Under the pieces are notes generated by a model, which worked only from the letters and a program-made list of their open reading frames with translations, was not told the DNA's origin and did no database searches. A stretch of 64,000 nucleotides of DNA from Somniosus microcephalus (Eukaryota), in NCBI GenBank assembly GCA_052327205.1, contig CM126218.1, forward strand, positions 36,642,001-36,706,000, in the 5' to 3' direction. Of this stretch, positions 1-54,400 are shown piece after piece. A program made the position numbers and the translations under genes. Each line of letters starts with the position of its first letter. Position 1 is the first letter of the stretch.

Positions 1-399
1 TATTTTATTGTCTTTTGAATGAAATGTACAATTTACAATTCATGTTGCTAGGGATACTCTGCATACTTTCCAATTCCAATCCAATCATTATTAAATCTTG
101 TCAAAGGATGATCGCTGACACGTTGTGGCTGTTAATATTATTCCCTGTTTTCTATTGTCCAGTAACTTGAAAGAGTTCTTTTGAAACACAACCAATTATG
201 CAAATGCTGCTTTTTCAGTCTCGTGTTTATGTTTGCACTTTAGTATTTGAAGTAAGGAGACCTAGTTAGTAGCTGTAGTCAATAATTTCCTCATTCTTTA
301 TGCCCGTTTCTCAATAAAATAACCTAGTGGTCAAACTCTATTAACACTGCTGGATTTGCAGTCGGAATGCAGCGGTTTTAAAATATTTTTTTTCTTCAG

Positions 400-462
400 A
401 AGTTACGACTACAACAAAAGGGACAACAACCACAACTGTGTCTACTGCCAGTTCAACAACTG
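400..462 (+). CDS. PTS micro-exon type A, 63 nt, (E)VTTTTKGTTTTTVSTASSTT(G); further copies start at 3831, 9474, 12905, 16336, 19767, 25410, 28841, 32272, 35703
   Basis: Acceptor ttttttcttcag, donor GTAAGT, phase 1-1, open Thr-rich frame. Confidence 0.88.
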
Positions 463-3400
463 GTAAGTGATGGTTTCTTTCATTATAGACTAGCAAGTCC
501 TTTGACACAAGTGTGCTTTTTTCAACTTTGGCGAAGAAAATGCCAGCCCATCAGTTCAGTCCTGTAGACCTGTAGCCCATTCCTTTGGGATGGAATTACT
601 TGAGAAGTTCAGAACATCTCAATCTGCAAGCAATGGCACTTTCACAAGAATTACAGAAGCAGTTTTGTGTAAACCTCTCCCCTGACAGCTTGTCCCAGGC
701 AAAGAATAAAACAGTTAGGTTTGAACAGTTGCAACTGTAAAATTCCTCTCTTCTGCCCACCTCTGTCTCATTTAGTCTCCACTTATTCTCACACTCAAAT
801 TTTTTACGATATTTTTTCGACCTGCTAATAAAATATAGAATTTGTACGTCATGCTGATGCTCGTGGGCTGCATACTTCTAAATTCCAATAGCATCATTGG
901 CAAATATTGACAAATGTTGTTCCCTTGACATGTTGTGGTTGCTAATATTGTGACTATTACTGTTTTGGTCCAGTAGTATGAAAGACTTCTTTTGAAACAC
1001 TCTGCAACTGCTGCCTTGCTGCTCTCATATTTATGTTTCCTATTATTGGTTGGATCATGAGGGTCTAATATGTTCTCCTCCTTTTCTGTTACAGAGGTTG
1101 TCTGCCATGGCAAATGGTCCCCCTGGTTTAATGAACACACACCTTCTATAGACAGCCCGGGCGATTCTGAATTACTAGACCACCGAAGCAATAAATACTG
1201 TTCTTCCCCTTTTGATGACATTATTAACATTCAGTGTCAGTTTGTTGGTGAACCTGAGAGGCCAATAAGTGAGTCACCAGACAATGTGACGTGCGACAAA
1301 GACACAGGGCTCATCTGTAGAGTCTCGGAAAGTGCTTTGGAGGAGTCCAAGTTTTGTTATGACTACAAAATTCGAGTTTGCTGCGAGATAGGAACACCAG
1401 CGACCACAACAACCAGCAGCAGTACAAACACGGCTTCTGGTAAATGAGAAACTTACGTACGAGTTAATAATGTCTCCCATACGTTAAATCAAAGCTGACT
1501 TTTTACATCAAGCAGTCAAAGGAGTTAATATATCTACTTAGTAGCTGTAATTAACAATTTCCTCATCATTTGTGCCTTAGTATCAATAAAATAGACTAAC
1601 GGCGAAATTCTCAATATTGCAGGATTTGAAATTAGAGGTAAGAGGTTTTGAATTTTTTTTTGTTTTGTTCACAAGTGACGACTACAACAAAAGGGACAAC
1701 AACCACACCTATTATTGTTGAAACTTCTACAACAGGTAAGTGATGCCTGCTTTCAATGTACACCAGCAAGTCTGTTCACACCAGTGTGCTTTTCTCAAAT
1801 TCAGCTTTCAGACAATGTCAGTCCATTAGTTCAGTCTTGTAGACCCTTGCTTTAGGGTGGAAATGCTTGAAAATTTTAAGACATCTGAATCTGCAATTAG
1901 TGTTTTCAACATCACTTGTGCAGAAAGTGTAATTAAATAGTCTTATGTTGGAAATCTACAGGAATACTATATGAATTTAAGTTGTATTGAAGTGGTTTTG
2001 ATGATATTTCTTGTTCTTCAGAAGGAATCACTACAACAGTGAAAACAACTACAACCGGGTCCACTATTGGCTCCACACCGGGTGAGTGAGGGCTTCTTTC
2101 GATATCCAGTACTAAGACCAGTGACACAAGTTAACTTGTTTCAACAGCTCCCAGACAGTGGAAGTCCATTACTTCACTCCTTGTAGATATTTAGCTCATT
2201 CCATTTAGAGGGAAATAGTTGAAAACTTCACTATATTGATTAACCTAGATCAGTGGCTGCGCTGAGGGGAAATGTTGTGTCTATGTTTGTGCCGCCTCTG
2301 TCTCTCTTAGTCTCTGCTTCCTCACCAACATTTACTCAGATTTTTGGCAATAATTTCCTGACTTTTGAATGAAATGTATAATTTCATGTTGATGGTGGTA
2401 TTCAGCATACTTTCAAATTCCAATAGAATCATTATCAAATATTGTCAAAGGATGATCACCTTGACATGTTGTGGTTGTTAATATTCTTCCTTTTTTCTAT
2501 TGTCCAGTAACTTGAAACAGTTCTTTGAAAACACTAACAATTATGCAAATATTGTCTCGCCATTTTCATGTTTATATTTGTTTTTTATTACTTGACAAAG
2601 GAGAAAAAAGTTGATATAGTTAGTAGCTGTAGTGAAACATTTCCCTCATTCTTTGCACTTTAGCATCAATTAAATACCCAACTGGTGAAACTCTCAATAC
2701 TGCAGGATTTCATATTTGTGTGTAGTAATTTTGAATGTTTTTATTTTTGTTTTGAAGTGACGACTACAACAAAAGGGACAACAACCACACCTATTATTGT
2801 TGACACTTCTACAACAGGTAAGTGATGACTGCTTTCGATATAAACCAGCAGGTCTGTTCACACCAGTGTGCTTTTCTCAAATTCAGCTTTCAGGCAATGT
2901 CAGTCCATTAATTCAGTCTTGCTTTTGTTGGAAAATGGTTGAAAACTTAGACATCTGAATCTGCAATTAGTTTTTTCAACAGCATTTGTGCAGAAAGTGT
3001 AGTTAAATAGTCTTATGGAGGAACTTTACAGAAATAATATAGGATTTTAAAATGTAATGTATTGAATTTGATGAAGTTTCCTGTTCTGCAGAAGGAGTCA
3101 CTACAACAGTGAAAGCAACTACAACCGGGTCCACTACTGGCCCCACACCGGGTGAGTGAGGGCTTCTTTCCATATCTAGTAGCAAGACCAGTGACACAAG
3201 TTATCTTGTTTCAACAACTCCCAGACAGTGGAAGTCCATCACTTCACCCCTTGTAGATATTTAGCCCATTCCTTCCAGAGAGAAATAGTTGACAACTACA
3301 CTATATCGATAAACCTAGTTCAGAGGCTGTGCGGAGGAGAAATGCTGTGTCCACGTTTGTGCCGCCTCTCCTCAGTTCCCTGACAGTGGAGTCTCTGATT

Positions 3401-6400
3401 ACTCACTAACGCTTACTTAACTTTTTTGTAATATTTTATTGTCTTTTGAATGAAATGTACAATTTACAATTCATGTTGCTAGGGATACTCTGCATACTTT
3501 CCAATTCCAATCCAATCATTATTAAATCTTGTCAAAGGATGCTCGCTGACACGTTGTGGCTGTTAATATTATTCCCTGTTTTCTATTGTCCAGTAACTTG
3601 AAAGAGTTCTTTTGAAACACAACCAATTATGCAAATGCTGCTTTTTCAGTCTCGTGTTTATGTTTGCACTTTAGTATTTGAAGTAAGGAGACCTAGTTAG
3701 TAGCTGTAGTCAATAATTTCCTCATTCTTTATGCCCGTTTCTCAATAAAATAACCTAGTGGTCAAACTCTATTAACACTGCTGGATTTGCAGTCGGAATG
3801 CAGCGGTTTTAAAATATTTTTTTTCTTCAGAAGTTACGACTACAACAAAAGGGACAACAACCACAACTGTGTCTACTGCCAGTTCAACAACTGGTAAGTG
3901 ATGGTTTCTTTCATTATAGACTAGCAAGTCCTTTGACACAAGTGTGCTTTTTTCAACTTTGGCGAAGAAAATGCCAGCCCATCAGTTCAGTCCTGTAGAC
4001 CTGTAGCCCATTCCTTTGGGATGGAATTACTTGAGAAGTTCAGAACATCTCAATCTGCAAGCAATGGCACTTTCACAAGAATTACAGAAGCAGTTTTGTG
4101 TAAACCTCTCCCCTGACAGCTTGTCCCAGGCAAAGAATAAAACAGTTAGGTTTGAACAGTTGCAACTGTAAAATTCCTCTCTTCTGCCCACCTCTGTCTC
4201 ATTTAGTCTCCACTTATTCTCACACTCAAATTTTTTACGATATTTTTTCGACCTGCTAATAAAATATAGAATTTGTACGTCATGCTGATGCTCGTGGGCT
4301 GCATACTTCTAAATTCCAATAGCATCATTGGCAAATATTGACAAATGTTGTTCCCTTGACATGTTGTGGTTGCTAATATTGTGACTATTACTGTTTTGGT
4401 CCAGTAGTATGAAAGACTTCTTTTGAAACACTCTGCAACTGCTGCCTTGCTGCTCTCATATTTATGTTTCCTATTATTGGTTGGATCATGAGGGTCTAAT
4501 ATGTTCTCCTCCTTTTCTGTTACAGAGGTTGTCTGCCATGGCAAATGGTCCCCCTGGTTTAATGAACACACACCTTCTATAGACAGCCCGGGCGATTCTG
4601 AATTACTAGACCACCGAAGCAATAAATACTGTTCTTCCCCTTTTGATGACATTATTAACATTCAGTGTCAGTTTGTTGGTGAACCTGAGAGGCCAATAAG
4701 TGAGTCACCAGACAATGTGACGTGCGACAAAGACACAGGGCTCATCTGTAGAGTCTCGGAAAGTGCTTTGGAGGAGTCCAAGTTTTGTTATGACTACAAA
4801 ATTCGAGTTTGCTGCGAGATAGGAACACCAGCGACCACAACAACCAGCAGCAGTACAAACACGGCTTCTGGTAAATGAGAAACTTACGTACGAGTTAATA
4901 ATGTCTCCCATACGTTAAATCAAAGCTGACTTTTTACATCAAGCAGTCAAAGGAGTTAATATATCTACTTAGTAGCTGTAATTAACAATTTCCTCATCAT
5001 TTGTGCCTTAGTATCAATAAAATAGACTAACGGCGAAATTCTCAATATTGCAGGATTTGAAATTAGAGGTAAGAGGTTTTGAATTTTTTTTTGTTTTGTT
5101 CACAAGTGACGACTACAACAAAAGGGACAACAACCACACCTATTATTGTTGAAACTTCTACAACAGGTAAGTGATGCCTGCTTTCAATGTACACCAGCAA
5201 GTCTGTTCACACCAGTGTGCTTTTCTCAAATTCAGCTTTCAGACAATGTCAGTCCATTAGTTCAGTCTTGTAGACCCTTGCTTTAGGGTGGAAATGCTTG
5301 AAAATTTTAAGACATCTGAATTTGCAATTAGTATTTTCAACATCACTTGTGCAGAAAGTGTAATTAAATAGTCTTATGTTGGAAATCTACAGGAATACTA
5401 TATGAATTTAAGTTGTATTGAAGTGGTTTTGATGATATTTCTTGTTCTTCAGAAGGAATCACTACAACAGTGAAAACAACTACAACCGGGTCCACTATTG
5501 GCTCCACACCGGGTGAGTGAGGGCTTCTTTCGATATCCAGTACTAAGACCAGTGACACAAGTTAACTTGTTTCAACAGCTCCCAGACAGTGGAAGTCCAT
5601 TACTTCACTCCTTGTAGATATTTAGCTCATTCCATTTAGAGGGAAATAGTTGAAAACTTCACTATATTGATTAACCTAGATCAGTGGCTGCGCTGAGGGG
5701 AAATGTTGTGTCTATGTTTGTGCCGCCTCTGTCTCTCTTAGTCTCTGCTTCCTCACCAACATTTACTCAGATTTTTGGCAATAATTTCCTGACTTTTGAA
5801 TGAAATGTATAATTTCATGTTGATGGTGGTATTCAGCATACTTTCAAATTCCAATAGAATCATTATCAAATATTGTCAAAGGATGATCACCTTGACATGT
5901 TGTGGTTGTTAATATTCTTCCTTTTTTCTATTGTCCAGTAACTTGAAACAGTTCTTTGAAAACACTAACAATTATGCAAATATTGTCTCGCCATTTTCAT
6001 GTTTATATTTGTTTTTTATTACTTGACAAAGGAGAAAAAAGTTGATATAGTTAGTAGCTGTAGTGAAACATTTCCCTCATTCTTTGCACTTTAGCATCAA
6101 TTAAATACCCAACTGGTGAAACTCTCAATACTGCAGGATTTCATATTTGTGTGTAGTAATTTTGAATGTTTTTATTTTTGTTTTGAAGTGACGACTACAA
6201 CAAAAGGGACAACAACCACACCTATTATTGTTGACACTTCTACAACAGGTAAGTGATGACTGCTTTCGATATAAACCAGCAGGTCTGTTCACACCAGTGT
6301 GCTTTTCTCAAATTCAGCTTTCAGGCAATGTCAGTCCATTAATTCAGTCTTGCTTTTGTTGGAAAATGGTTGAAAACTTAGACATCTGAATCTGCAATTA

Positions 6401-9400
6401 GTTTTTTCAACAGCATTTGTGCAGAAAGTGTAGTTAAATAGTCTTATGGAGGAACTTTACAGAAATAATATAGGATTTTAAAATGTAATGTATTGAATTT
6501 GATGAAGTTTCCTGTTCTGCAGAAGGAGTCACTACAACAGTGAAAGCAACTACAACCGGGTCCACTACTGGCCCCACACCGGGTGAGTGAGGGCTTCTTT
6601 CCATATCTAGTAGCAAGACCAGTGACACAAGTTATCTTGTTTCAACAACTCCCAGACAGTGGAAGTCCATCACTTCACCCCTTGTAGATATTTAGCCCAT
6701 TCCTTCCAGAGAGAAATAGTTGACAACTACACTATATCGATAAACCTAGTTCAGAGGCTGTGCGGAGGAGAAATGCTGTGTCCACGTTTGTGCCGCCTCT
6801 CCTCAGTTCCCTGACAGTGGAGTCTCTGATTACTCACTAACGCTTACTTAACTTTTTTGTAATATTTTATTGTCTTTTGAATGAAATGTACAATTTACAA
6901 TTCATGTTGCTAGGGATACTCTGCATACTTTCCAATTCCAATCCAATCATTATTAAATCTTGTCAAAGGATGCTCGCTGACACGTTGTGGCTGTTAATAT
7001 TATTCCCTGTTTTCTATTGTCCAGTAACTTGAAAGAGTTCTTTTGAAACACAACCAATTATGCAAATGCTGCTTTTTCAGTCTCGTGTTTATGTTTGCAC
7101 TTTAGTATTTGAAGTAAGGAGACCTAGTTAGTAGCTGTAGTCAATAATTTCCTCATTCTTTATGCCCGTTTCTCAATAAAATAACCTAGTGGTCAAACTC
7201 TATTAACACTGCTGGATTTGCAGTATCAATAAAATAGACTAACGGCGAAATTCTCAATATTGCAGGATTTGAAATTAGAGGTAAGAGGTTTTGAATTTTG
7301 TTTTGTTTTGTTCACAAGTGACGACTACATCAAAAGGGACAACAACCACACCTATTATTGTTGAAACTTCTACAACAGGTAAGTGATGCCTGCTTTCAAT
7401 GTACACCAGCAAGTCTGTTCACACCAGTGTGCTTTTCTCAAATTCAGCTTTCAGACAATGTCAGTCCATTAGTTCAGTCTTGTAGACCCTTGCTTTAGGG
7501 TGGAAATGCTTGAAAATTTTAAGACATCTGAATCTGCAATTAGTGTTTTCAACATCACTTGTGCAGAAAGTGTAATTAAATAGTCTTATGTTGGAAATCT
7601 ACAGGAATACTATATGAATTTAAGTTGTATTGAAGTGGTTTTGATGATATTTCTTGTTCTTCAGAAGGAATCACTACAACAGTGAAAACAACTACAACCG
7701 GGTCCACTATTGGCTCCACACCGGGTGAGTGAGGGCTTCTTTCGATATCCAGTACTAAGACCAGTGACACAAGTTAACTTGTTTCAACAGCTCCCAGACA
7801 GTGGAAGTCCATTACTTCACTCCTTGTAGATATTTAGCTCATTCCATTTAGAGGGAAATAGTTGAAAACTTCACTATATTGATTAACCTAGATCAGTGGC
7901 TGCGCTGAGGGGAAATGTTGTGTCTATGTTTGTGCCGCCTCTGTCTCTCTTAGTCTCTGCTTCCTCACCAACATTTACTCAGATTTTTGGCAATAATTTC
8001 CTGACTTTTGAATGAAATGTATAATTTCATGTTGATGGTGGTATTCAGCATACTTTCAAATTCCAATAGAATCATTATCAAATATTGTCAAAGGATGATC
8101 ACCTTGACATGTTGTGGTTGTTAATATTCTTCCTTTTTTCTATTGTCCAGTAACTTGAAACAGTTCTTTGAAAACACTAACAATTATGCAAATATTGTCT
8201 CGCCATTTTCATGTTTATATTTGTTTTTTATTACTTGACAAAGGAGAAAAAAGTTGATATAGTTAGTAGCTGTAGTGAAACATTTCCCTCATTCTTTGCA
8301 CTTTAGCATCAATAAAATACCCAACTGGTGAAACTCTCAATACTGCAGGATTTCATATTTGTGTGTAGTAATTTTGAATGTTTTTATTTTTGTTTTGAAG
8401 TGACGACTACAACAAAAGGGACAACAACCACACCTATTATTGTTGACACTTCTACAACAGGTAAGTGATGACTGCTTTCGATATAAACCAGCAGGTCTGT
8501 TCACACCAGTGTGCTTTTCTCAAATTCAGCTTTCAGGCAATGTCAGTCCATTAATTCAGTCTTGCTTTTGTTGGAAAATGGTTGAAAACTTAGACATCTG
8601 AATCTGCAATTAGTTTTTTCAACAGCAATTGTGCAGAAAGTGTAGTTAAATAGTCTTATGGAGGAACTTTACAGAAATAATATAGGATTTTAAAATGTAA
8701 TGTATTGAATTTGATGAAGTTTCCTGTTCTGCAGAAGGAGTCACTACAACAGTGAAAGCAACTACAACCGGGTCCACTACTGGCCCCACACCGGGTGAGT
8801 GAGGGCTTCTTTCCATATCTAGTAGCAAGACCAGTGACACAAGTTATCTTGTTTCAACAACTCCCAGACAGTGGAAGTCCATCACTTCACCCCTTGTAGA
8901 TATTTAGCCCATTCCTTCCAGAGAGAAATAGTTGACAACTACACTATATCGATAAACCTAGTTCAGAGGCTGTGCGGAGGAGAAATGCTGTGTCCACGTT
9001 TGTGCCGCCTCTCCTCAGTTCCCTGACAGTGGAGTCTCTGATTACTCACTAACGCTTACTTAACTTTTTTGTAATATTTTATTGTCTTTTGAATGAAATG
9101 TACAATTTACAATTCATGTTGCTAGGGATACTCTGCATACTTTCCAATTCCAATCCAATCATTATTAAATCTTGTCAAAGGATGCTCGCTGACACGTTGT
9201 GGCTGTTAATATTATTCCCTGTTTTCTATTGTCCAGTAACTTGAAAGAGTTCTTTTGAAACACAACCAATTATGCAAATGCTGCTTTTTCAGTCTCGTGT
9301 TTATGTTTGCACTTTAGTATTTGAAGTAAGGAGACCTAGTTAGTAGCTGTAGTCAATAATTTCCTCATTCTTTATGCCCGTTTCTCAATAAAATAACCTA

Positions 9401-12400
9401 GTGGTCAAACTCTATTAACACTGCTGGATTTGCAGTCGGAATGCAGCGGTTTTAAAATATTTTTTTTCTTCAGAAGTTACGACTACAACAAAAGGGACAA
9501 CAACCACAACTGTGTCTACTGCCAGTTCAACAACTGGTAAGTGATGGTTTCTTTCATTATAGACTAGCAAGTCCTTTGACACAAGTGTGCTTTTTTCAAC
9601 TTTGGCGAAGAAAATGCCAGCCCATCAGTTCAGTCCTGTAGACCTGTAGCCCATTCCTTTGGGATGGAATTACTTGAGAAGTTCAGAACATCTCAATCTG
9701 CAAGCAATGGCACTTTCACAAGAATTACAGAAGCAGTTTTGTGTAAACCTCTCCCCTGACAGCTTGTCCCAGGCAAAGAATAAAACAGTTAGGTTTGAAC
9801 AGTTGCAACTGTAAAATTCCTCTCTTCTGCCCACCTCTGTCTCATTTAGTCTCCACTTATTCTCACACTCAAATTTTTTACGATATTTTTTCGACCTGCT
9901 AATAAAATATAGAATTTGTACGTCATGCTGATGCTCGTGGGCTGCATACTTCTAAATTCCAATAGCATCATTGGCAAATATTGACAAATGTTGTTCCCTT
10001 GACATGTTGTGGTTGCTAATATTGTGACTATTACTGTTTTGGTCCAGTAGTATGAAAGACTTCTTTTGAAACACTCTGCAACTGCTGCCTTGCTGCTCTC
10101 ATATTTATGTTTCCTATTATTGGTTGGATCATGAGGGTCTAATATGTTCTCCTCCTTTTCTGTTACAGAGGTTGTCTGCCATGGCAAATGGTCCCCCTGG
10201 TTTAATGAACACACACCTTCTATAGACAGCCCGGGCGATTCTGAATTACTAGACCACCGAAGCAATAAATACTGTTCTTCCCCTTTTGATGACATTATTA
10301 ACATTCAGTGTCAGTTTGTTGGTGAACCTGAGAGGCCAATAAGTGAGTCACCAGACAATGTGACGTGCGACAAAGACACAGGGCTCATCTGTAGAGTCTC
10401 GGAAAGTGCTTTGGAGGAGTCCAAGTTTTGTTATGACTACAAAATTCGAGTTTGCTGCGAGATAGGAACACCAGCGACCACAACAACCAGCAGCAGTACA
10501 AACACGGCTTCTGGTAAATGAGAAACTTACGTACGAGTTAATAATGTCTCCCATACGTTAAATCAAAGCTGACTTTTTACATCAAGCAGTCAAAGGAGTT
10601 AATATATCTACTTAGTAGCTGTAATTAACAATTTCCTCATCATTTGTGCCTTAGTATCAATAAAATAGACTAACGGCGAAATTCTCAATATTGCAGGATT
10701 TGAAATTAGAGGTAAGAGGTTTTGAATTTTTTTTTGTTTTGTTCACAAGTGACGACTACAACAAAAGGGACAACAACCACACCTATTATTGTTGAAACTT
10801 CTACAACAGGTAAGTGATGCCTGCTTTCAATGTACACCAGCAAGTCTGTTCACACCAGTGTGCTTTTCTCAAATTCAGCTTTCAGACAATGTCAGTCCAT
10901 TAGTTCAGTCTTGTAGACCCTTGCTTTAGGGTGGAAATGCTTGAAAATTTTAAGACATCTGAATCTGCAATTAGTGTTTTCAACATCACTTGTGCAGAAA
11001 GTGTAATTAAATAGTCTTATGTTGGAAATCTACAGGAATACTATATGAATTTAAGTTGTATTGAAGTGGTTTTGATGATATTTCTTGTTCTTCAGAAGGA
11101 ATCACTACAACAGTGAAAACAACTACAACCGGGTCCACTATTGGCTCCACACCGGGTGAGTGAGGGCTTCTTTCGATATCCAGTACTAAGACCAGTGACA
11201 CAAGTTAACTTGTTTCAACAGCTCCCAGACAGTGGAAGTCCATTACTTCACTCCTTGTAGATATTTAGCTCATTCCATTTAGAGGGAAATAGTTGAAAAC
11301 TTCACTATATTGATTAACCTAGATCAGTGGCTGCGCTGAGGGGAAATGTTGTGTCTATGTTTGTGCCGCCTCTGTCTCTCTTAGTCTCTGCTTCCTCACC
11401 AACATTTACTCAGATTTTTGGCAATAATTTCCTGACTTTTGAATGAAATGTATAATTTCATGTTGATGGTGGTATTCAGCATACTTTCAAATTCCAATAG
11501 AATCATTATCAAATATTGTCAAAGGATGATCACCTTGACATGTTGTGGTTGTTAATATTCTTCCTTTTTTCTATTGTCCAGTAACTTGAAACAGTTCTTT
11601 GAAAACACTAACAATTATGCAAATATTGTCTCGCCATTTTCATGTTTATATTTGTTTTTTATTACTTGACAAAGGAGAAAAAAGTTGATATAGTTAGTAG
11701 CTGTAGTGAAACATTTCCCTCATTCTTTGCACTTTAGCATCAATAAAATACCCAACTGGTGAAACTCTCAATACTGCAGGATTTCATATTTGTGTGTAGT
11801 AATTTTGAATGTTTTTATTTTTGTTTTGAAGTGACGACTACAACAAAAGGGACAACAACCACACCTATTATTGTTGACACTTCTACAACAGGTAAGTGAT
11901 GACTGCTTTCGATATAAACCAGCAGGTCTGTTCACACCAGTGTGCTTTTCTCAAATTCAGCTTTCAGGCAATGTCAGTCCATTAATTCAGTCTTGCTTTT
12001 GTTGGAAAATGGTTGAAAACTTAGACATCTGAATCTGCAATTAGTTTTTTCAACAGCATTTGTGCAGAAAGTGTAGTTAAATAGTCTTATGGAGGAACTT
12101 TACAGAAATAATATAGGATTTTAAAATGTAATGTATTGAATTTGATGAAGTTTCCTGTTCTGCAGAAGGAGTCACTACAACAGTGAAAGCAACTACAACC
12201 GGGTCCACTACTGGCCCCACACCGGGTGAGTGAGGGCTTCTTTCCATATCTAGTAGCAATACCAGTGACACAAGTTATCTTGTTTCAACAACTCCCAGAC
12301 AGTGGAAGTCCATCACTTCACCCCTTGTAGATATTTAGCCCATTCCTTCCAGAGAGAAATAGTTGACAACTACACTATATCGATAAACCTAGTTCAGAGG

Positions 12401-42400: not shown

Positions 42401-45400
42401 TGCCTCTCTAGGTGACCAGAATTGTATACAGTACTCCGTGTGTCTAGCCAAGGTTCAGTACAAGTTTAACACAATGGCTGCAATTTTGCTGGTGCTCAAT
42501 GGACCCAATTGGTGGCGGGTCAGCTGTGAAATTTAAAGTGATTGACAGCGGGTCGGGAACCTACTGTCAAAATGCACACACCTGCATTTCCCAATATCGG
42601 GTCTGCCAGCACTGAGCAGACCCAACAGGCAGCGGCAGGGGAACCAATTCAAATCATTAGTGGTTTGTTTACAGCCACTTAACAATGCTTTTTCCCCCAG
42701 CTTTTTGGATTTGACAGGTTGCCCACTGGATTCCTGCTGTGCCTAGACCTTGTCTGTAAAATTGAGGCAGGAGGTTACTTGACATTGAATCAGCTAATGA
42801 GTTGACAGCTTCAAATGTCAAGTCAAAGCTCCCAGCTGATTGAGACATGTTCCCTTAACCACTAGCTTCTCTTAATTGCATTTCCACTGCAGATTCAGAA
42901 CGCTGCAAGTCTTTACACAAGTCTCCATCCAGCCTGACCTCATTACCTCTCCCACCATTGACAGATCACTTCTGTCATGTCTACTTCACCTGCCATCTAT
43001 TCCATCAGCATGGGTGCACTTTATACTCTCTCACCTTGGTCTTCAGAAGCTGACCATGATCAGCCGCATCACCAGGCACACCAGCAACACCAACAACCAC
43101 ACCAACCTTCTCCGCAATCACCTGATGCTGCAGAGGACTGAGGGCATCAGCACCCGACCACATTGCTGCCCGGGACACCAGGGGTGGCCTTGCCATGGCC
43201 AGATTTACTTCACTTGACGCTGCACACCCTGGCTGCCACATGATGTGCCAGGTTGGCACCACACCATCACCATAAAGCATCCCTAAAATGCCCAAGCCAT
43301 TCCTTTCACGCTCATCAGCATTGTGGGGGGCTACCATTATGTCTCACCATTCACTGCAACTCACTAAGCCACTTCCAAAGGTGCACACAAATCTGTCCAA
43401 GAACGCAAAGAGTTGAAAATAAAGATTTCAATGTTTGACAGCACATTAACAGAAACTTCACATGAACATTGGCTAAAACACACACGTGCCTACCCTTGTG
43501 TGTTGTTAGTTGGTATGATTGGACTAGGATGAGGGTGAGTGCGAGGGGTGCTAATGAGATGGGGAAGTGATAATATGTAGATATAGAGGGATGGGTGGAT
43601 TTATAAGGTAAGTTGGTGTGAGTGAGGATGTGCAGGAGTAGGGTAGGGAAGGCAGAGTGATGGGGATGTGAAGAGTGGCACAGCAGGATGAGGTTGAGTG
43701 TGGCTTTGCAGTAGCATTTCGTGATCTACTGAGATCATTAAAAGGTTTGTGCCACTGCAGCTTGGTCCTCCTGACAACATCCCTGCTTGTGCCCTCCTGT
43801 GCAATGTGCAGCCAGGCTGCATTGGTCTCCTCGGGAGGTCTCTTCCGCTAACTGGAAGGGAAGGGAACCCCCCTGCGTGCTGTAACTCCCTCCATAAGCA
43901 TATGGAGGGAGTTATAGGAGAGCCTAAGTGCAGCCATGCACCTCTGTGCAGTGCTTGTCAGTGTTTGCAGCACCGCAATGCTATAGAACACTGACAACAC
44001 AAATGTCCAAGTAAATTTGCGCATGGTCCCTTTAAAGAAACCAGCTGATGACGCGTCATCAAATGATGTCGTCAGACCCGCTTCCTTCAGTTGGCCGGGA
44101 AACTCGCTGGGCGGGCTTAACAAGCCCAATTAGGGGAAAGTCATGTCAGAGGCCGGGATGGAGCCAGCAGCGAGGCCGCAACCCGCCACCGATCTCACCC
44201 GCCACGGACCTGCCGAGGTAGGGAAACCCGTAGCCAACATCTCTACTTTTCAAATATATCCCTCTAGAAATAAACCCTAGTGCTTGGTTTGCTTTTTTAA
44301 TGGCCTTATTAACCTGCATTTCTACTTTTAGTAATTTGTGTATTTGTACTCTGAGATCCCTTTGCTCCTCTACCCCATTTAGATTCTTATTTTCCAAGTA
44401 ATATGTGACCTCCTTATTTTTCTTACCAAAATATTCTACCTCACAATTATTTGTGTTGAAATTCATTTGCCAATGATATGCCCATTCTGCAAGTTTATTA
44501 ATGTCTTGTAATTTGTTGCCATCCTCCTCAGTATTGACTATTCTACTGAATTTGGCATCATCCGCCAATTTAGAAATTGTGTTCATGATTCCAAAGTCTA
44601 AATCGTTAATATGAATTGAGAACAACATTGGTCCCAGCACTGATCGTTGTGGGACCCTACTTACCAACTTCTACCACTCTGAATAGCTACCCTTTACCCC
44701 ACTCTCTACTTCCTGTCTTGAAGCCAGCTAGCTATCCATTCTGCTACTTCTCCCCGGACTCTGCATACTCTGACCTTATTCATTGGTCTATTATGGGGCA
44801 CCTTCTCGAAGGCCTTTTGGAAATCTAGGTAACTTGCATCTACTACATTATCCTTGTCTACTCTCTCTGTTACCTCTTCAAATAATTCAATGAGGTTGGT
44901 CAAGCAAGACCTTTCCTTTTGAAATCTATGCTGACTATTTATTATTATATTTTTGGTTTCTATATGTTTTTCTATTTTCTCCTTTAGTAGGGATTCCATT
45001 ATTTTTCCTGCCAGCGATGTTAAGCTGACTGGTCTATAGTTCCCTGGGCATGTTCTACCTCCCTTCTTAAATATGGGTATTACGTTAGCTATCCACCAGT
45101 TCTCTGGCACTACACCTTTTTCTAATGAATTATTGAATATGTGTACTAGTGTCTCTACTATCTCTTCCCTAGATTCTTTTAAAATGTGTGGATGTAATCT
45201 GTCCAGACCAGGGGTTTTATCCTCTTTGAGTTTGATTAGTTTATTTACTATTTCTCCTCTTTTTATTTTAAATGTAGTTATATCATTTCTATCATCTTCT
45301 GATGTTATGTCCACCTGAACTGTCTCTCTGGTAAATACTGAAGCAAAGTAATTATTTAATATTTCTGCCATTTTGCTATCGCTGCCTGTGATTTTATCCT

Positions 45401-48400
45401 ATCCATCCTATGCCCATCCCAACTTTTCTTTTTTTATTTATGTGCCTATAGAATATTTTTACTATTTTGTTTTATGTTCCTTGATAATTTAATTTCATAG
45501 TTCCCCTTTGCCTTCCTAATTGTTTTGTGACTTCTCTCCTAATCTTTGTATTATTCCTTGTCGTGCTCTCCCCTGCTGTCCATGTACTTCTTTTATGCCT
45601 CTTTTCATACCCTCAATTTTTCCCATATGTCTTTATTCACCCATGGTGTCTCATTAGTGTTTAACTTGTTCTTGTTTTTTTATCGGAATATATTTTTCCT
45701 GGACTCTGTTGAACAACGTTTTAAATGTTTCCCATTGCTGTTCTACATCATTGTTTGCCAATATTGTTGTCAATTTTATTTTCCAAAATTCTATTCTCAA
45801 CCCCTCAAAACTGGCTTTTCTCCAGTCTATTACCCTGGTCTTCCTCAGGCTTATGTCCTTTTAATTATTATCTTAAAGCATATTATATAATGGTCACTAT
45901 TGCCTGGATGTTCCCCTAATTTTACATCTCTTATCTGCTCTGTTTCATTCCCCATTATTAGATCCAGTAGCGAATCCTCCCTTGTTGGGCTTCTTACATA
46001 TTGGGTTGGAAAGGAGTCCTGCACACATTCCCTTATCCCCTTTACCTACCTCTTCTGGCCAATTAATTTAAGGATATTCAAAATCCCTCATGATTATTAT
46101 TCTATGTATTTTACTCATTTCCCTAATTTGTTTGCATATTTCTTCCTCCACCTCCCTTCCACTATTAGTTGGTCAGTAGACTACCCCTACTAGTGTGATT
46201 GATTCTTTAATATCTTTTATCTCTAACCACATGGATTCTATTTCTGTCTTACTGATAGCTGTGTCACTTTATTCTACGGCGATTATGATATCTCTAACAA
46301 ATACAACAACTCCACCTCCCCTTTTTCCCTTCTATCTTTTCTAAATATACCCTGCCATTTTAATTCCCAATCATGATTCTTCTGTAACCCTACTATGTCT
46401 GGTTCCTTGCAATGTATTATTGCCTCCAGTTCCACTGTTTTATTATGGACACTGTGTGCAATACTGTACAGCCAGTTTAACTAATTTTTACCATTGCCAA
46501 AGAATGTTCCCCTTGACATTTTGTGATGGTTAATATTCTTCCCTGGGATGAGAGGGTTGTCCTATGAGGAGAGATTGAGTTTAGAAGAATGAGAGGTGAT
46601 CTCATTGACACATATAAGATTCTGAGGGAGATTGACAGGGTAGACGCTGAGAGATTGTTTCCCCTGCCTGGAGAGTCTAGAACTAGGAGACATAGTCTAA
46701 GGATAAGGGGTCGGCATTTAAGACTGAGATGAGGAGGAATTTCTTCACTCAGAGGATTGTGGATCTTTGGAATTCTCTACCCCAGATGCTGAGTTGTTGA
46801 GTATATTCAAGGCAGAGATCGATAGATTTTAGACTCTAGAGGAATCAAGGGATAGGGGGATCAGGCGGGAAAGTAGAGTTGAGGTCGAAGATCAGCCATG
46901 ATCTTATTGAATGGTGGAGCAGACTCAAAGGGCGGTATGGCCTACTCCTGCTCCTAATTCTTATGTTTTTATGTTCTTCCCTTTTCTTCTTTTGTCCAGT
47001 ACCTTGAAATAGTTCTTTTGAAACACAACCAATTATGCAAATGTTATCTTGCCACTCTCATGTTTATGTTTGCTTTTTTTACCTGACAGAAGGAGAAAAA
47101 AGTTGATCTAGTTATTGCTGTAGTAAAACATTTTCCTCATTGCACTTTAGTATCAGTAAAATAGCCTACTGGTGAAATTTTCAGTACTGCAGGATTTGAA
47201 ATCGGAGTTCAGCGGTTTTGAATTTTTTCTTTTGTTGTAGTCATCACTGCTGAACAAAAGGGGACAACAACCACACGTTGAAAGGATAATTACTAGTCCT
47301 AGCCCCTTTAGGGCTACCCCGGATCAGGCATATTCCCCAGATGTTCATTTTCAACTAAAGTTTGAGGTAGCCAAATCCTAAAGATGCTTAATTGGGTCTA
47401 AAGGTCTGGACTATCTCTCCCTAAAGGAAAGGAACAACCTGAAAATGTTACCATCCTCCAGATAGCACTTTTAATAAGTTTAGCTAGACTGTAACATTCT
47501 GGATATTTATGAGAGTCTGGAAAACTCCCCCAGAATTCTGCAACTCCTCACCAAAGAGTATACAGAGATTGAGTTTGCGAGTTTGATACAGAAGTATTAT
47601 GTGAGACAATTCTAAAAATATATAGATTTATTAAAGAACCGACATATAATTTACAGTTGGTGAGTCAATCACAACATTAACAATTCCAAAAAGAGAGAGC
47701 TTTACAATTCTATTAGCAGAGAACCTACTCTCAAATCTTAACTTCGCTACAGTTTTACAGTTCTCAGTTTATTCAGGATATCCACCAAAATCAAATACAG
47801 TACCTTGATCCCCGAGGTACAAAGAGTTGAAGACTTACAGAGCTAGCCCTGAAGCCAAGAATCACTTTGCACCTTTAAGTGAGTCTATTATCCCATTTGA
47901 GAGTTCAATTTTTATACCCTTTCCCATTGGTATTTTATTTAAGGTTTTCTGCTGATGTAAGCTAATTATCTCTAGTCATTTTTCTGCTGACCCTTGCAGC
48001 TCTTACAGTCACCTCAGCTGGTAGTACTACAGAAATATGTCTCTTTAGGTGTTCTAAGTTTACCATAAAAAATGATGTAACTGCAGGTGTGTTTTACTTG
48101 ATGTAATTTTCATGAAGGCAAATGTTTGTTACTTTTATGTGCTCCATTACCAGGTGTAAATGAAAACCTTATACCGGGTAACTATTGTCTTATTCCCAAA
48201 GGTTTAGACTTCCAGGAGCCTCTAACCTTCTGTTTCAATAAGGTTATTGATTCAGTGTCAACAACTTATCTTATCTCAATAACCAGAATGCTATCACAGC
48301 TTTTTCATTGTTCGGTTTCTAGATTTCCAGACCCAGTTTGTCATGTTCTGATAAGGCCAGAATTCTTTCATAGAATGGTGTATTTTTCTGAATAGGTTCT

Positions 48401-51400
48401 ATTGCTTATTCCTTCACAACCTGTTATTGCTGACACTACTACACCAGGTAAGCAATGTCTTCTTTCAATATACACCAGCAAGTCTGTTCACAACAGTGTG
48501 CTTTTCTCCAATTCAGATTTCAGACAATGTCAGTCCATTAGTTCAGTCTTGTAGACCTTTCCTTTTGGGTGGAAATGGTTGAAAATTAAAAGACATCTGA
48601 ATCTGCAGTTAGTTTTATCAACATCACTTTTGCAGCCAGAGCAATAAAATAACCTTATGGCGGAACTCTACAGGAACACTGTAGGTATTTAGGTTGAATT
48701 AAAGTAGTTTTCATTATTTTTCTTGTTCTTCAGCAGGAATCACTACAACAGTGAAAGCAACTACAACCGGGTCCACTACTGGCTCCACACCGGGTGAGTG
48801 AGGGCTTCTTTTGATATCCAGTAGCAAGACCTTCACACTTGTAGATATTTAGCCCATTCCTTCCAGATGGAAATGGTTGAAAACATAATTATTTGCATGA
48901 AACTAGATCAGAGGCTCTAACTGAGGAGAAATGCTGTGTCCATGTTTGTGCCGCTTCTGTCTCTCTCAGTCTTTGCTTCCTCACCAACCTTTACTCAAAT
49001 TTCTGACAATATTTCTCCAACTTTTGAATGAAACGTACAATTTTCATTTCATGATGGTGGTACGCTGCATTCTTTCAAATTCCAATACAATCATTACCAA
49101 ATATTGTCAAAAGTTGTTCCTCTTGACATGCTGTGACTGTTAATATTTTTCCTTTTTCTTCTTTTGTCCAGTAACTTGAAAGATTGCTTTTGACACACAA
49201 CCATTTATGCAAATGTTGCTTTGTTGGTCTCGTGTTAATGTTTGCACTTTAGTATTTGAAGTAAGGAGACCTAGTTAGTAGCTGCCGTCAATAATTTCCT
49301 CATGCTTTATGCCCTTTTGTCAATGAAATAACCGAGCAGTGGAACTCTAGTAATATTGCTGGATTTGCAATCGGAGTGCAGTGGTATTGAATATTTTTCT
49401 TTTTGATCAGAAGTGACGACTACAACAAAAGGGACAACAAGCACAACTGTATCTACTGCCAGTTCTACAACTGGTAAGTGATGTCTTCTTTCAATATAGA
49501 CCAACAAGTCTGTTCACACAAATGCACTTTTCTCAAATTCAGCTTTCAGCCAATGTCAGTCCGTCAGTTCAGTCTTGTAGACCCTTCCTTTTGGGAGGTA
49601 ATAGTTGAAAAATTATTGGATGTCTGAATCTGCAGTTCATTTTATCAGCATCACTTTTGCAACAAGAGCAATAAAATAGTCTTCTGGTGGAACACTACAG
49701 GAACACTGTAGGAATTTACGTTGTATTGTCGTGGTTTTGATGAACTTTCTTGTTCTTCAGAAGGAATCACTACAACAGTGAAAGCAACTACAACCGGGTC
49801 CACTACTGGCTCCACACCGGGTGAGTGAGGGCTTCTTTCGATATCCAGTAGCAAGACCAGTGACACAAGTTATCTTGTTTCAACAACTCAGCAGACAGTG
49901 GAAGTCCATCACTTCACCCCTTGTAGATATTTAGTCCATTCCTTTCAGAGGGAAATGGTTGAAAACATTTGAATATTTGAATGAAGCTCAATCTGAGGCT
50001 GTGCTGAGGAGAAATGCTGTGTCCAAGGTTTTTGCCGCCTCTGTCTCTCTTAGTCTCTGCTTACTCATCAACTTTTACTCAACTACTACAACGGATAAGT
50101 AAAATGAAGTCTTCCTTCAATATACTCGAACAAATCTGTTCACACCAGTATGGTTTTCTCAAATTCAGGATTCAGGCAATGTCAGTCCATTAGTTCAGTC
50201 TTGTAGGCCCTTTTGGATGAAAATGGTTGAAAATTTAAAGACATCTGAATCTGCAATTTGTTTTTTCAACATCACTTTTGCAGCAAGAGCAATAAAATAG
50301 TCTTGTATGGTAACTCTATGGGAATACTATAGGAATTTACATTGTATTGTGGTTTTGATTAATTTTGTTGTTCTTCAGGAGTCACTACAACAGTGAAAAC
50401 AACTACAACCGGGTCCACTATTGGCTCCACACCGGGTGAGTGAGGGTTTCTTTCGATATAAAGTAGCAAGACCAGTGACACAAGTTATCTTGTTTCAACA
50501 ACTCCCACACTGTGGAAATCCATTACTTCACCCCTTGTAGATATTTAGCTCATTCCTGTCAGAGGGAAATGGTTGGAAACATAGGCCCGTAATTTCCGAT
50601 AGGAGGCTTCCTGCGTGCGGATACCTCCTAGCGGAAAAAAATCTATGCACTTACTTGAGGGCTCACGAGGTCCGGACACTTCCGATCCTGGGCCTGCCCA
50701 CAGTCGAAATGCGCAGGGTCTACGTATCCCAGGGGCGCAGGCGGTTCGCAAGCGTCCCTGGGATCACGTGGGCCAGGTGAGCCAATGAAAGAAGGGAATC
50801 CCCTTTCATACTTTTGACAGATAGAACTGTCAAAAGTATGAATGGGGATCACTGAAAAAAGATACTAAAACATTAAATACATTTTTAAAAAACCATCACG
50901 TTTTTAAAATGAGTTAAAATTACATTAAATTAAAGTTTTTTACGGGGCTAAAAATAAACTTACCTTTTTTAAAAGTATTTTTAAATTATAAATGAGGTTT
51001 TTTTTACTTTTTTAAACTCTTATGCTGGTAAAAGCAGGCCTTGTGCCTGCTTTTACCAGGCGTAAGATTTCTAAGTGTTTTCAGCGGGCGGAGGTTCTGC
51101 AGAAAGTGGAACTCTCCCTCTGCAGAGGCCCTTCTCCAGGGCAGGTGTGCGATTCTTGACAGATCGGAAATGCCAGTTTTCAGCACATGTGCTTAGCATG
51201 CCTGAAACCGGCATTTCCGATGTCCCTACACCTGTAGGCATCGGAAAATACAGGCCATTATCTATTTGAATGAAGCTCGATCAGTGGCTCTGCCTGAGAA
51301 GTGCTGTGTCTATGTTTGTGCCACCTATGTTTCTCTTAGTCTCTGCTTATTCATCTATTTTCCCTCAGCTCTATTGGCAATACCCTCTGACTTTTGAATG

Positions 51401-54400
51401 AAACGTACAATTTGCATTTGATGTTGATATTGGTTGTCTGCATACTTTCAAATTCCAATAGAATTATTATCAGATATTGTCAAAGGATCTTCCCTGACCC
51501 GTTGTGATTGTTAATATTGTTATATTTCCTTCTTTTATCCAGTACCTTGAAAGAGTTGTGTCACAACACAACCAATTATGCAAAACTTGCCTTGCATCTC
51601 TCATGTTTGTTTTCTCTTTTTTACTCAACAAAGGGGGAAATAAATGGATCTAGTTAGTAGGGTGTAGTTAAAGCTTTCCTCATTCTTTGCACTTTATTAT
51701 CAATAAAATTACTGACTGGTCAAACGGTAAGGATTGAATTTGAAGCACAGTAGTAGTTAATATTGTTCTCTTTTCAGAAGTAAGAACTACTACGTCAGAG
51801 ACAACAACTACAACTGGGTCTACTGCCAGTCCTACAACAGGTGAGTGATGTCTTCTTTCAAGATACATAAACAAGTTGTTTGACACAATTGTGCATTTTT
51901 CAATCTCGGCTTCCAGGCAATGTCTGTCCATTGGTTCAGTCTTGGAGACCCTTCCTTTGGGGTAGAAATGGTTGAAAATTTAAGGATATCTGAATCTGCA
52001 GCTAGTACTATCAAATTTTAGTTGCAGTGTTGTGGTTTTGATTGCTTTTTTTGTTCTTCAGAACGAATCACTACAACAGTGACAGCAATTACAACCGGGT
52101 TTACTGCCAGCTCCACTACTGGTAAGTGTTTTAAAAAAAATGTTTACTTCTTACAGTGACCAGATTGACAGGTGTGTTTTTTTTCCCTCCTACTTTCATC
52201 TTCGTCCCACCTGTCAGCCTGCTCATCGCACTCAACAGTTAGAAATGATTTTGATAGCTGTCTATTTATATTTTGTATTAAGTATGTCACTATCTTAACT
52301 TACAGAAGTGGTTTGCAACGGTGTATGGTCTGACTGGTTTAATGAAAATTCACCATCTATTTACAACAAAGGCGATTCTGAATTACTGGAGCCAATACGT
52401 GACAAATTGTGTTCCGTTTTCCCTTCTAAAATAAGCAAAATTCAATGTGAAGCTGTCAAATTTCCACAGCGTCCAATCAGTGAAACAAAGAACAACGTCA
52501 CTTGTGATATAAAGAACGGACTGATTTGCAGTTACAATGAAGACACTTCTCAGAATGACATAATGTGCTTGGACTATAGAATTAGAGTCTGCTGTGAGTC
52601 TGTAACAACTTTAAGCCCGAGCACAGTTACTACAGTCTATTCAACACCGGCAGTCACCTCACCTACAAGTGAACCAGGATGTTATTGTGATATAAACCCA
52701 CCGAGAAAGGTAAGTTCAAACTTCTTATTGCAAGAGTTCATACACTGTTGACAAGCCAAGATAAATGACATTGGATGGAAGCGATGATTTTTATTTTCAG
52801 CTTTAATGATTTTTGATCACTTTGGGGAAAATCTAGGTTTGAGACTCACAGGGGAGATTTATAAAGCTATTATAATAGAAGCAGAAGACTTTGTTGAAAT
52901 AAATAGAAAGAAATTATTATAAGACAAGAAAGGGAAAGAAAGAAGCTATTAAATAGTGAGAGATGAAAACGCTGTTAGAAGGGCGAATTGATATGCAAGA
53001 ATTAAGACAGGAAAGAGAATAAGGATCAATGTTCCAAAAAAAAACACAAAATTGGAGTGCTGTAAGCATTAATAACTATGGAGGAATGTGATATAGTAAC
53101 TAAAGCAGGAACATGGCTTACATTTGAACAGAACTGGGGCCTTAATATTCCTGGATACAACATTTTCGGAAAAAACACGGAGGACAAAAAGTTGGGTGGG
53201 GTGCCAATGTTAGCGAAAGACTCTTGCAGCATTTGAACTTAAGGCTGTCCTGGGGGATTGCTGGAAGACAGATTCCGTGTGGACAGAGTTAGAAATAGGA
53301 AGGAAATTGGTACAAATCGTGATGTACACTAGAGGACACCATACAGTGGAAATGAGATAGAGGTGGAGATCTGCAAACGCTTTAGAGCTATATGTAAAAA
53401 CAACAGGGCATTAACAAGGTAAGGCTTGAGAAATAACTGCTTTGGCGAGGCACCACAGGACTAACAGCACCTGTGAAATCAAACCACAACAGGAGCCACT
53501 ATTTTTCAAGAGAAAAAGGGAAGGAAATTGGGGGGGACTAAAGTAATGATCCCTGACCTGAAAACCTCAAAACTACACAACCAATCACACACTTTTTTAG
53601 TTGCTTTTTAAAGTGGAATAGGTAACTGCCCTTGACATCAAGGCAGCATTTAACCGAGTGTGGCATCAAGGAGCCCTAGTAAAATTGAAGTCAATGAGAA
53701 TCGGGGGGAAAACTCTCCACTGGCTGGAGTCATACCTAGCACAAAGGAAGATGGTTGTGGTTGTTGGAGGCCAATCAACACAGCCCCAGGACATCGCAGC
53801 AGGAGTGCCTCAGGGCAGTGTCCTAGGCCCAACCATCTTCAGCTGTTTCATCAATGTCCTTCCCTCCATCATAAGGCCAGAAGTGGGGATGTTCGCTGAT
53901 GACTGCACAGTGTTCAGTTCCATTCACAACTCCTCAGAAATTGAACCAGTCTATGTCGCATGCAGCGAGACCTGGACAACATTCAGGCTTGGGCTGATAC
54001 GTGCCAAGTCACATTTGCTCCACACAAGTGCCAGGCAATGACTATCTCCAACAAGCGAGAGTCCAACCACCTCCCCTTGACATTCAATGGCATTACCATC
54101 GCCGAATCCCCCACCATCAACATCCTGGGGGTCATAATTGACCAGAAACTTAACAGGACCAGCCACATAAATACTGTGGCTACAAGAGCAGGTCAGAGGC
54201 TGTGTATTCTGCGGCGAGTGTCTCACCTCCTGACTCCCCAAAGCCTTTCCACCATCTACAAGGCACAAGTCAGGAGTGTGGTGGAATACTCTCCACTTGC
54301 CTGGATGAGTGCCATTCCAACAACACTCAAGAAGCTCAAAACCATCCAGGACAAAGCAGCCCACTTGATTGGCACCTCATCCAACACCTTAGACATTCAC

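Follow-up and report, generated by a model that had tools for sequence, protein, structure and literature searches.

How is the length of a mucin core set when each repeat of the protein occupies an exon of its own: in the DNA, by the number and make-up of the repeat blocks, or in the RNA, by the choice of exons? The question is raised by a 64,000-nucleotide stretch of the genome of the shark Somniosus microcephalus (the window), which starts at C17:36,642,001, C17 being contig CM126218.1, and holds part of a gel-forming mucin gene with many small symmetric exons. We consider it probable that this gene is a Muc19-clade mucin whose core consists of tandem phase 1-1 exon-plus-intron blocks, that core length and the spacing of its CysD domains are set mainly in the DNA, and that splicing is mostly constitutive. 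The principle is known (one repeat per exon, with the splicing idea already in print), and the locus is a clean, extreme example rather than a surprise.

Micro-exons were sought as open phase 1-1 AG...GT segments with a high proline, threonine and serine (PTS) content. The scan returned 62 donor sites at 400-52121 on the forward strand, which carries all window features below unless stated otherwise: 49 micro-exons are 60 nt long, 12 are 63 nt and one is 57 nt. The same scan gave no segment in five shuffles of the first 53 kb and none on the reverse strand. A 39-nt candidate at 60598 was dropped because it lies within a downstream VWD-C8 exon. Ten CysD exons of 345 nt, also phase 1-1, were detected in the window (Pfam Mucin2_WxxW, E value 2.6e-17), and the 72 symmetric exons joined together read as 2,400 codons with no stop. 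The original prediction of 62 micro-exons and 11 CysD exons was right in its counts; its uniform description of the CysD exons (345 nt, phase 1-1) holds for ten of them, the eleventh being 404 nt long and phase 1-0. A tandem NAGNAG acceptor is present at 38 of the 62 micro-exons, where exon length may drop by 3 nt.

Most of these exons (56 micro-exons and 10 CysD exons) form a homogeneous higher-order array (400..37384) with the repeat unit A (63 nt), D (345 nt), B, C, B' and C' (60 nt each), or 216 codons per 3,431 bp, 81% of which is intron. The 3,431-bp units are near-identical, introns included, so the proposal that the repeat unit of the protein is a genomic exon-plus-intron block stands. 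Exon A (400..462, phase 1-1, tandem acceptor) recurs at 3831, 9474, 12905, 16336, 19767, 25410, 28841, 32272 and 35703. Exon D (1095..1439) encodes a CysD domain (WxxW, eight cysteines, with one N-glycosylation sequon in this copy) and a short threonine/serine tail, and recurs at 4526, 10169, 13600, 17031, 20462, 26105, 29536, 32967 and 36398, the last copy having six substitutions. Exon B (1676..1735, AAG acceptor) has 12 copies in the window and is followed by exon C (2022..2081), which has a tandem acceptor whose first AG is used in a transcript contig. Exons B' (2758..2817) and C' (3092..3151), with 11 copies each, differ from B at 1 nt and from C at 4 nt, respectively. A and B were recognized by the scan and D by its domain match, all three also by the A-D and D-B joints described below; C, B' and C' come from the scan, supplemented by unit comparison for B' and C' and by a transcript contig for C and C'. 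Two longer units of 5,643 bp carry an additional B C B' C'. The PTS spacer encoded by the micro-exons is 101 residues between most CysD exons and 181 residues in the two long units. Tandem Repeats Finder, which handles periods of up to 500 bp, therefore did not detect the array.

The regular and long units are followed by A D B C; a transposon-filled intron of 11.3 kb then leads to a diverged tail in the order C A C C A C (48734..52121). The scan found six intact micro-exons in the tail (48734, 49411, 49761, 50379, 51778 and 52062), and the earlier description of this part needs correction, as two broken relics are also present: a B'-like micro-exon interrupted by a 1,140-bp insertion (47241..48447), which is predicted to be skipped, and an exon remnant at 50081-50094 without a valid donor. 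The array leaves through the terminal CysD exon (52306..52709, 404 nt, recognized by its domain match); being phase 1-0, it is an obligatory exit exon and not a skippable cassette. A second correction is that the window holds part of the array. With flanking stretches added for whole-gene mapping, it was found to start 17.5 kb upstream, at about -17,486. The full array has 89 micro-exons (counting the entry exon) and 16 CysD exons (15 of 345 nt plus the terminal one), and reads as 3,655 codons with no stop, of which 46% are threonine, serine or proline when the CysD domains are counted in.

The array exons are spliced in transcript contigs, and the gene is expressed. We compared one array unit with four sequencing runs (X12, X1, X14 and X15). 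X12, which shares its species label with two runs containing all sampled CysD words, is covered to a depth of 200-3,600 in bins that contain exon and of 0-2.2 in bins of intron only. Its A-D joint removes 632 nt (GT..AG, depth 1,591) and its D-B joint removes 236 nt (GT..AG, depth 1,363), depths close to that of the CysD body (1,074-1,363). Loose ends in X12 correspond to the junctions B/B'-C, B/B'-C', entry exon-C across an 11.3-kb intron, and last micro-exon to terminal CysD (52121-52306). X1, from a relative whose exons are about 90-95% alike, has A-D, D-to-B-type, C-B', B'-C-type and C'-A junctions. The exon model thus gains support from junctions that it predicted, A-D and D-B in X12 and C-B' and C'-A in X1. 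The B and B' exons are 98.3% identical and C and C' 93.3%, compared with 82-87% for the paired introns, as expected under selection on exons.

Evidence on how the core changes comes from a second copy of the gene 1.9 Mb upstream, with flanks 96.5-99.3% identical and a 23.8-kb tract, 99.87% identical between the copies, that runs into the array start. The array of copy 2 has 44 micro-exons and 9 CysD exons. In four of its units a 585-bp deletion removes exon C, and three of these four also have a 108-bp deletion that takes the donor of B'; reading the remaining B' stump to any of four downstream GT sites gives a stop or a frame shift. The PTS spacers in the deleted units are 61 or 81 residues. 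Cassette loss demonstrably happens in the DNA, the copy-2 units having been rebuilt by intronic deletions. The regular units of the window gene vary at 0-3 of their 3,431 positions; diagnostic changes are common to the two long units, which lie 15,936 bp apart; one pair of single-nucleotide polymorphisms (SNPs) is present in units of both gene copies, and rare SNPs are common to distant units. Near-identity and shared rare SNPs are the pattern that unequal exchange and gene conversion would leave. The 3,431-bp unit is in its turn a higher-order repeat, built on an older block of about 1.08 kb (79% over 1,413 bp). The suggestion that copy number tunes the mucin is supported by the extended array and by the unit deletions of copy 2.

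Since so much is drawn from repeats, we considered whether the number of units, their near-identity and the second copy are partly products of assembly, through a mis-expanded repeat or a haplotype placed in tandem, with the exon types themselves real. A run of 55 kb of 99.9% identical units exceeds ordinary accurate read lengths; the copies have the 99.87% tract in common, and X12 contigs break within the CysD exon at 1162, 1236 and 1374, positions matching no variant printed for the assembly units, which suggests other alleles or errors. We judge such an artefact improbable: neither region contains an N gap, the duplication is confined to a block of two genes and three other paralogs lie between the copies, and the copies differ by many insertions and by 1-3.5% substitutions over most of 200 kb. 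The X12 contig ends are also better explained by the two copies together than by copy 1 on its own.

Splicing could still be the main source of diversity, one gene giving rise to mucins that differ in length and CysD spacing, possibly under tissue regulation. Each of the 72 array exons of the window is phase 1-1, the AAG acceptors of B and B' have no branch-like motif within 60 nt, and the D donor is a non-consensus GTAAAT. For the Scyliorhinus canicula orthologue RefSeq predicts at least 39 isoforms (numbered to X39), with losses of one exon or of several; among them are 1-residue NAGNAG shifts, losses of 15 and 20 residues, and larger ones of 96-524 residues in which one or two CysD domains disappear; reedfish mucin-19-like isoforms vary in 16-residue steps. 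In the available parts of the literature, a single in-frame skip within the PTS region has been demonstrated for chicken Muc2, and the polymorphism of Xenopus FIM-C.1 is attributed to splicing. However, the RefSeq isoforms are automatic predictions in a repeat region, all 13 of 13 reedfish isoform differences are repeat-equivalent and could be produced by mis-mapped reads, and the chicken Muc2 source reports, in the part available, no widespread splicing change on infection. Our own comparison covered 6 joints, 12 of the 18 loose ends and 16 of the 85 pieces. None of the six listed joints requires the skipping of an intact exon, no joint listed for X12 or X1 is an unambiguous skip, junction depth is about equal to exon depth, and the A-D and D-B junctions sit on unbranched contigs. 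In a de Bruijn simulation, the presence of a D-skipping isoform would leave the A-D contig with 30 nt of exon A, compared with the 32 nt seen. C and C' are each preceded by 13 nt of B, which by simulation fits both gene copies being spliced in order with the stumps skipped, so that B and B' each come before C as well as C'; copy 1 alone would give 44 nt of B before C/C'. The two junction types in the raw reads of X15 (12 and 3 reads), which belong to a paralog, were considered as skips and rejected, as both match genomically adjacent exon pairs. Taken together, intact exons may be skipped in some transcripts; as the main source of diversity we regard combinatorial splicing as unlikely, and prefer the reading that remodelling in the DNA sets length and spacing.

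Beyond the array, the predicted gene has the domains of a gel-forming mucin. Three N-terminal VWD-C8-TIL units are encoded by exons 37-83 kb upstream (tblastn with shark N-termini, 1,128 of 1,195 residues covered). Five C-terminal exons of the fourth VWD-C8 region, recognized by domain match, lie at 56062-56233, 56341-56573 (VWD, Pfam E value 3.8e-15), 60120-60303, 60445-60655 and 63746-63921, and read in frame with the terminal CysD exon over 459 codons with no stop. Cystine-knot exons at window-equivalent 71,789-73,477, ending 9.5 kb downstream, are followed by a stop and match the cystine-knot ends of P0002 and P0004. The predicted product would have about 5,300 residues: three VWD-C8-TIL units, a PTS/CysD array of about 3,650 residues, a fourth VWD and a cystine knot. 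The closest database proteins to the CysD domain are all from sharks (65-80% identity).

The original prediction had compared the gene with MUC5AC, MUC5B and MUC2, and a MUC2- or MUC5-type mucin that lost its giant central exon would account for the domain order (D1-D3, PTS with CysD, D4, cystine knot) and for the names of most shark orthologues in databases, mucin-2-like or mucin-5AC-like. The genomic position speaks against it. The locus adjoins LRRK2, not AP2A2: LRRK2, recognized by a beta-propeller family match, occupies C17:33.63-33.65 Mb, and the first of nine paralogs follows after 75 kb. A COR-domain search, tried as an LRRK2 marker, had its sole match on C27. Human MUC19 and LRRK2 are located in one region, according to the available part of PMC10557577, and MUC19 is separate from the MUC2/5/6 cluster in that of PMC2180178. 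An AP2A gene is found on another contig, C15, with six other mucin-like N-termini within 6 Mb, a group that is likely the Muc2/5/6 cluster of this genome. It includes separate giant-exon CysD mucins, two near-identical genes in opposite orientation at 11.35 and 11.77 Mb with open frames of 6,246 and 6,458 codons. The N-terminus of the closest relative is nearer to tetrapod and coelacanth MUC19 (41-47% identical) than to MUC5AC (37-40%), and a shark homolog is equidistant from human MUC2, MUC5AC and MUC5B (770-796 bits). A quick, unrooted tree of 36 rows of the N-terminal region, in which true MUC2 and MUC6 are absent, places sharks plus MUC19 and MUC5 at opposite ends of a branch of 1.26 (Shimodaira-Hasegawa-like approximate likelihood ratio test, SH-aLRT, 100); the MUC5 placement was checked by tree and that of MUC2 by score and synteny alone. 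Bichir and reedfish mucin-19-like proteins likewise contain the CysD family. A MUC2/MUC5 origin is thus very improbable, and the gene, as judged from sequence and synteny, is a Muc19-clade gel-forming mucin that retains CysD and a fourth VWD and not a MUC2/MUC5 orthologue.

Several points weigh against a Muc19-clade mucin remodelled mainly in the DNA and spliced mostly constitutively. X12 has no RNA label on record, spliced RNA being inferred from the depth pattern, and the C-B' and C'-A joints were seen in the relative X1 only, not in X12. The raw-read RNA runs X14 and X15 have 9 and 38 reads, respectively, none on CysD, so no junction is countable for this gene; the exon reads of X15 derive from the paralog at 36.16 Mb. 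None of the runs listed as containing CysD words is recorded as RNA, which says nothing about expression either way. The margin of 32 against 30 nt is thin, and the B-C' and B'-C joins may be adjacency in copy 2 or, equally, skips in copy 1. Contigs lose rare variants, and whole-unit skipping is invisible to short reads. In-frame losses are numerous among the catshark RefSeq isoforms, and 15 of the 16 compared with isoform X2 contain peptides that X2 lacks. The number of units and copy 2 are those of the assembly as it stands, and in the tree, beside its lack of a root and of true MUC2 and MUC6, two rows named Mucin-2 fell inside MUC5AC.

Under the DNA-level reading, unequal crossing-over and gene conversion would amplify and homogenise the blocks. 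With 81% of the block intronic and all exons symmetric, most breakpoints would keep the reading frame, and a damaged exon would just be left out of the mRNA. The CysD domains would act as non-covalent cross-links, as in MUC2, and their spacing would influence the gel mesh. The two gene copies differ mainly in this spacing (101 versus 61-81 residues), which is thought to affect the mucus mesh. More tentatively, and with considerable doubt, the locus may be a length machine of two tiers, an array remodelled in the DNA between paralogs and individuals and re-sampled in each cell by skipping, which would give a programmable cross-link spacing. If true, the nine-gene cluster would show that CysD and a fourth VWD were already present in the ancestral Muc19, and one could follow how giant mucin exons come from, or break down into, exon arrays. 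The gap-free array makes the 2006 hypothesis that splicing sets mucin length within an individual testable, because each type of skip has a distinct junction.

The nine Muc19-like paralogs lie downstream of LRRK2 at C17:33.73-37.12 Mb, eight on the forward strand and the last on the reverse strand. The genes at 34.65 and 34.85 Mb form a block that has a duplicate at 36.56 and 36.78 Mb. Micro-exon arrays are present in three paralogs besides the window gene, copy 2 among them. In the paralog at 36.16 Mb, 163 candidate micro-exons (80 of 63 nt and 79 of 60 nt) extend over 251 kb (C17:36,186,969-36,438,100); they are phase 1-1 and alternate between 63 and 60 nt, with higher-order repeats of 3,903 and 2,579 bp and without CysD. 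This paralog is transcribed, with junction reads in X15 and X12. In the paralog at 37.12 Mb (array at 36.96-37.07 Mb, reverse strand), some 49 micro-exons, each 60 nt long, recur with a period of about 3,065 bp; it has a single internal CysD exon, and its first VWD exon is 94% identical. The paralogs at 34.85 and 36.78 Mb have CysD followed by an 8-residue variable-number tandem repeat (VNTR) in a single large exon, of 1,564 codons (C17:34,926,742) and 983 codons (C17:36,849,099), so the VNTR exon length differs between duplicates. Mid-sized PTS exons were found in the paralogs at 35.39 and 35.77 Mb. The scan covered 90 kb at 33.73 Mb and 20 kb each at 35.39, 35.77 and 34.85 Mb. Micro-exon arrays and large VNTR exons coexist within one cluster, which offers a paired comparison of exon-array and single-exon VNTR mucins. 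More CysD-family matches lie outside both mucin clusters, at C13:5.83 Mb, C25:2.6-2.8 Mb, and C27:0.17 and 41.5 Mb. Intronic open frames of 1,362 and 1,330 codons at C17:36,407,141 and 34,920,394 are likely retrotransposon polyproteins.

Transposons have entered the introns of the window gene, and the symmetric phase lets such insertions, like deletions, pass without frame breakage. The 11.3-kb intron contains a PIF/Harbinger-like DNA transposon (37581..41709) with 16-bp terminal inverted repeats and a 3-bp ACT target duplication. It has a DDE_Tnp_4 open reading frame on the forward strand and a Myb/SANT-like one, below the Pfam cut-off, on the reverse strand; its ends are intact, its transposase frame stops early near 39039, and the matching element in copy 2 is shorter by about 1.6 kb. 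Reverse-transcriptase fragments of a long interspersed nuclear element (LINE) lie in the same intron on the reverse strand (44146..45398). Similar LINE-like remnants are present in introns of the C-terminal region (53622-54760 and 58220-59780), and a second, shorter element with terminal repeats similar by eye to those of the Harbinger-like transposon (62656-63460) is likely a non-autonomous relative.

The likely orthologues in other sharks are RefSeq 'mucin-2-like' models from Pristiophorus japonicus, Carcharodon carcharias, Scyliorhinus canicula and Mustelus asterias, with CysD domains 65-80% identical and the same kinds of 19-21-residue units alternating with CysD. The expectation that standard annotation would probably miss the micro-exons is therefore not supported, although several models are truncated or split; the order of units varies by species, and the names point to the wrong clade. 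A shark skin proteomics study reported mucin-2-like and mucin-5B-like proteins and, in the part available, no mucin-19 (PMC10707392). Shark genes named mucin-2-like or mucin-5AC-like appear to be Muc19 paralogs, which matters for skin-mucus proteomics. Our literature search found no account of shark exon-cassette arrays or of a CysD-bearing Muc19 cluster; the domain maps of PMC4948705, outside the search, may show CysD in ghost-shark Muc19. Within the Muc19 clade, the available parts of PMC2180178 and PMC4989455 describe spiggins as a tandem Muc19 expansion with unequal crossing-over, gene conversion and chimeras, and those of PMC4948705 give a fourth VWD for some spiggins and three Muc19 paralogs for the ghost shark, with CysD and a fourth VWD being typical of Muc2/Muc5. 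The shark gene resembles this clade in its locus by LRRK2, its tandem expansion and the fourth VWD of some spiggins. In these partial sources mammalian MUC19 lacks a fourth VWD, whereas the shark gene has one together with 16 CysD exons, and the human MUC19 VNTR studied sits in one exon of about 12 kb (PMC4948705, PMC2180178, PMC4989455, PMC10557577). The shark cluster holds both kinds of core side by side.

Cassette splicing is the model for Xenopus FIM-B.1, and human MUC19 is also said, in work attributed to Zhu and colleagues in 2011, to have very many small exons and splice variants. FIM-C.1 is termed highly polymorphic via alternative splicing in the available text of PMC7177656; FIM-C.1 and FIM-B.1 are skin mucins that, like the shark gene, have repeat cassettes, although FIM-C.1 has trefoil modules instead of CysD. 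In chicken and zebrafish Muc13, as far as the excerpt of PMC1552070 goes, one PTS repeat is encoded per near-identical exon, and its authors proposed length control by splicing, maybe as an ancestral design. Muc13 thus has in common with the shark gene one repeat per symmetric exon, spliced in the mRNA, but is a transmembrane SEA mucin without CysD or VWD. The closest parallel in domain content is chicken Muc2, a gel-forming mucin with a multi-exon PTS region and interspersed CysD: the part of PMC3549977 available describes PTS and CysD spread over many exons (10 cassettes, exons 32-45), repeated intronic elements and one in-frame splice variant. Chicken Muc2 belongs to another clade and has 69-residue repeats, four CysD domains and assembly gaps; the shark gene, in contrast, is built from a six-exon higher-order block in which CysD is its own symmetric exon, present 15 times in a gap-free array.

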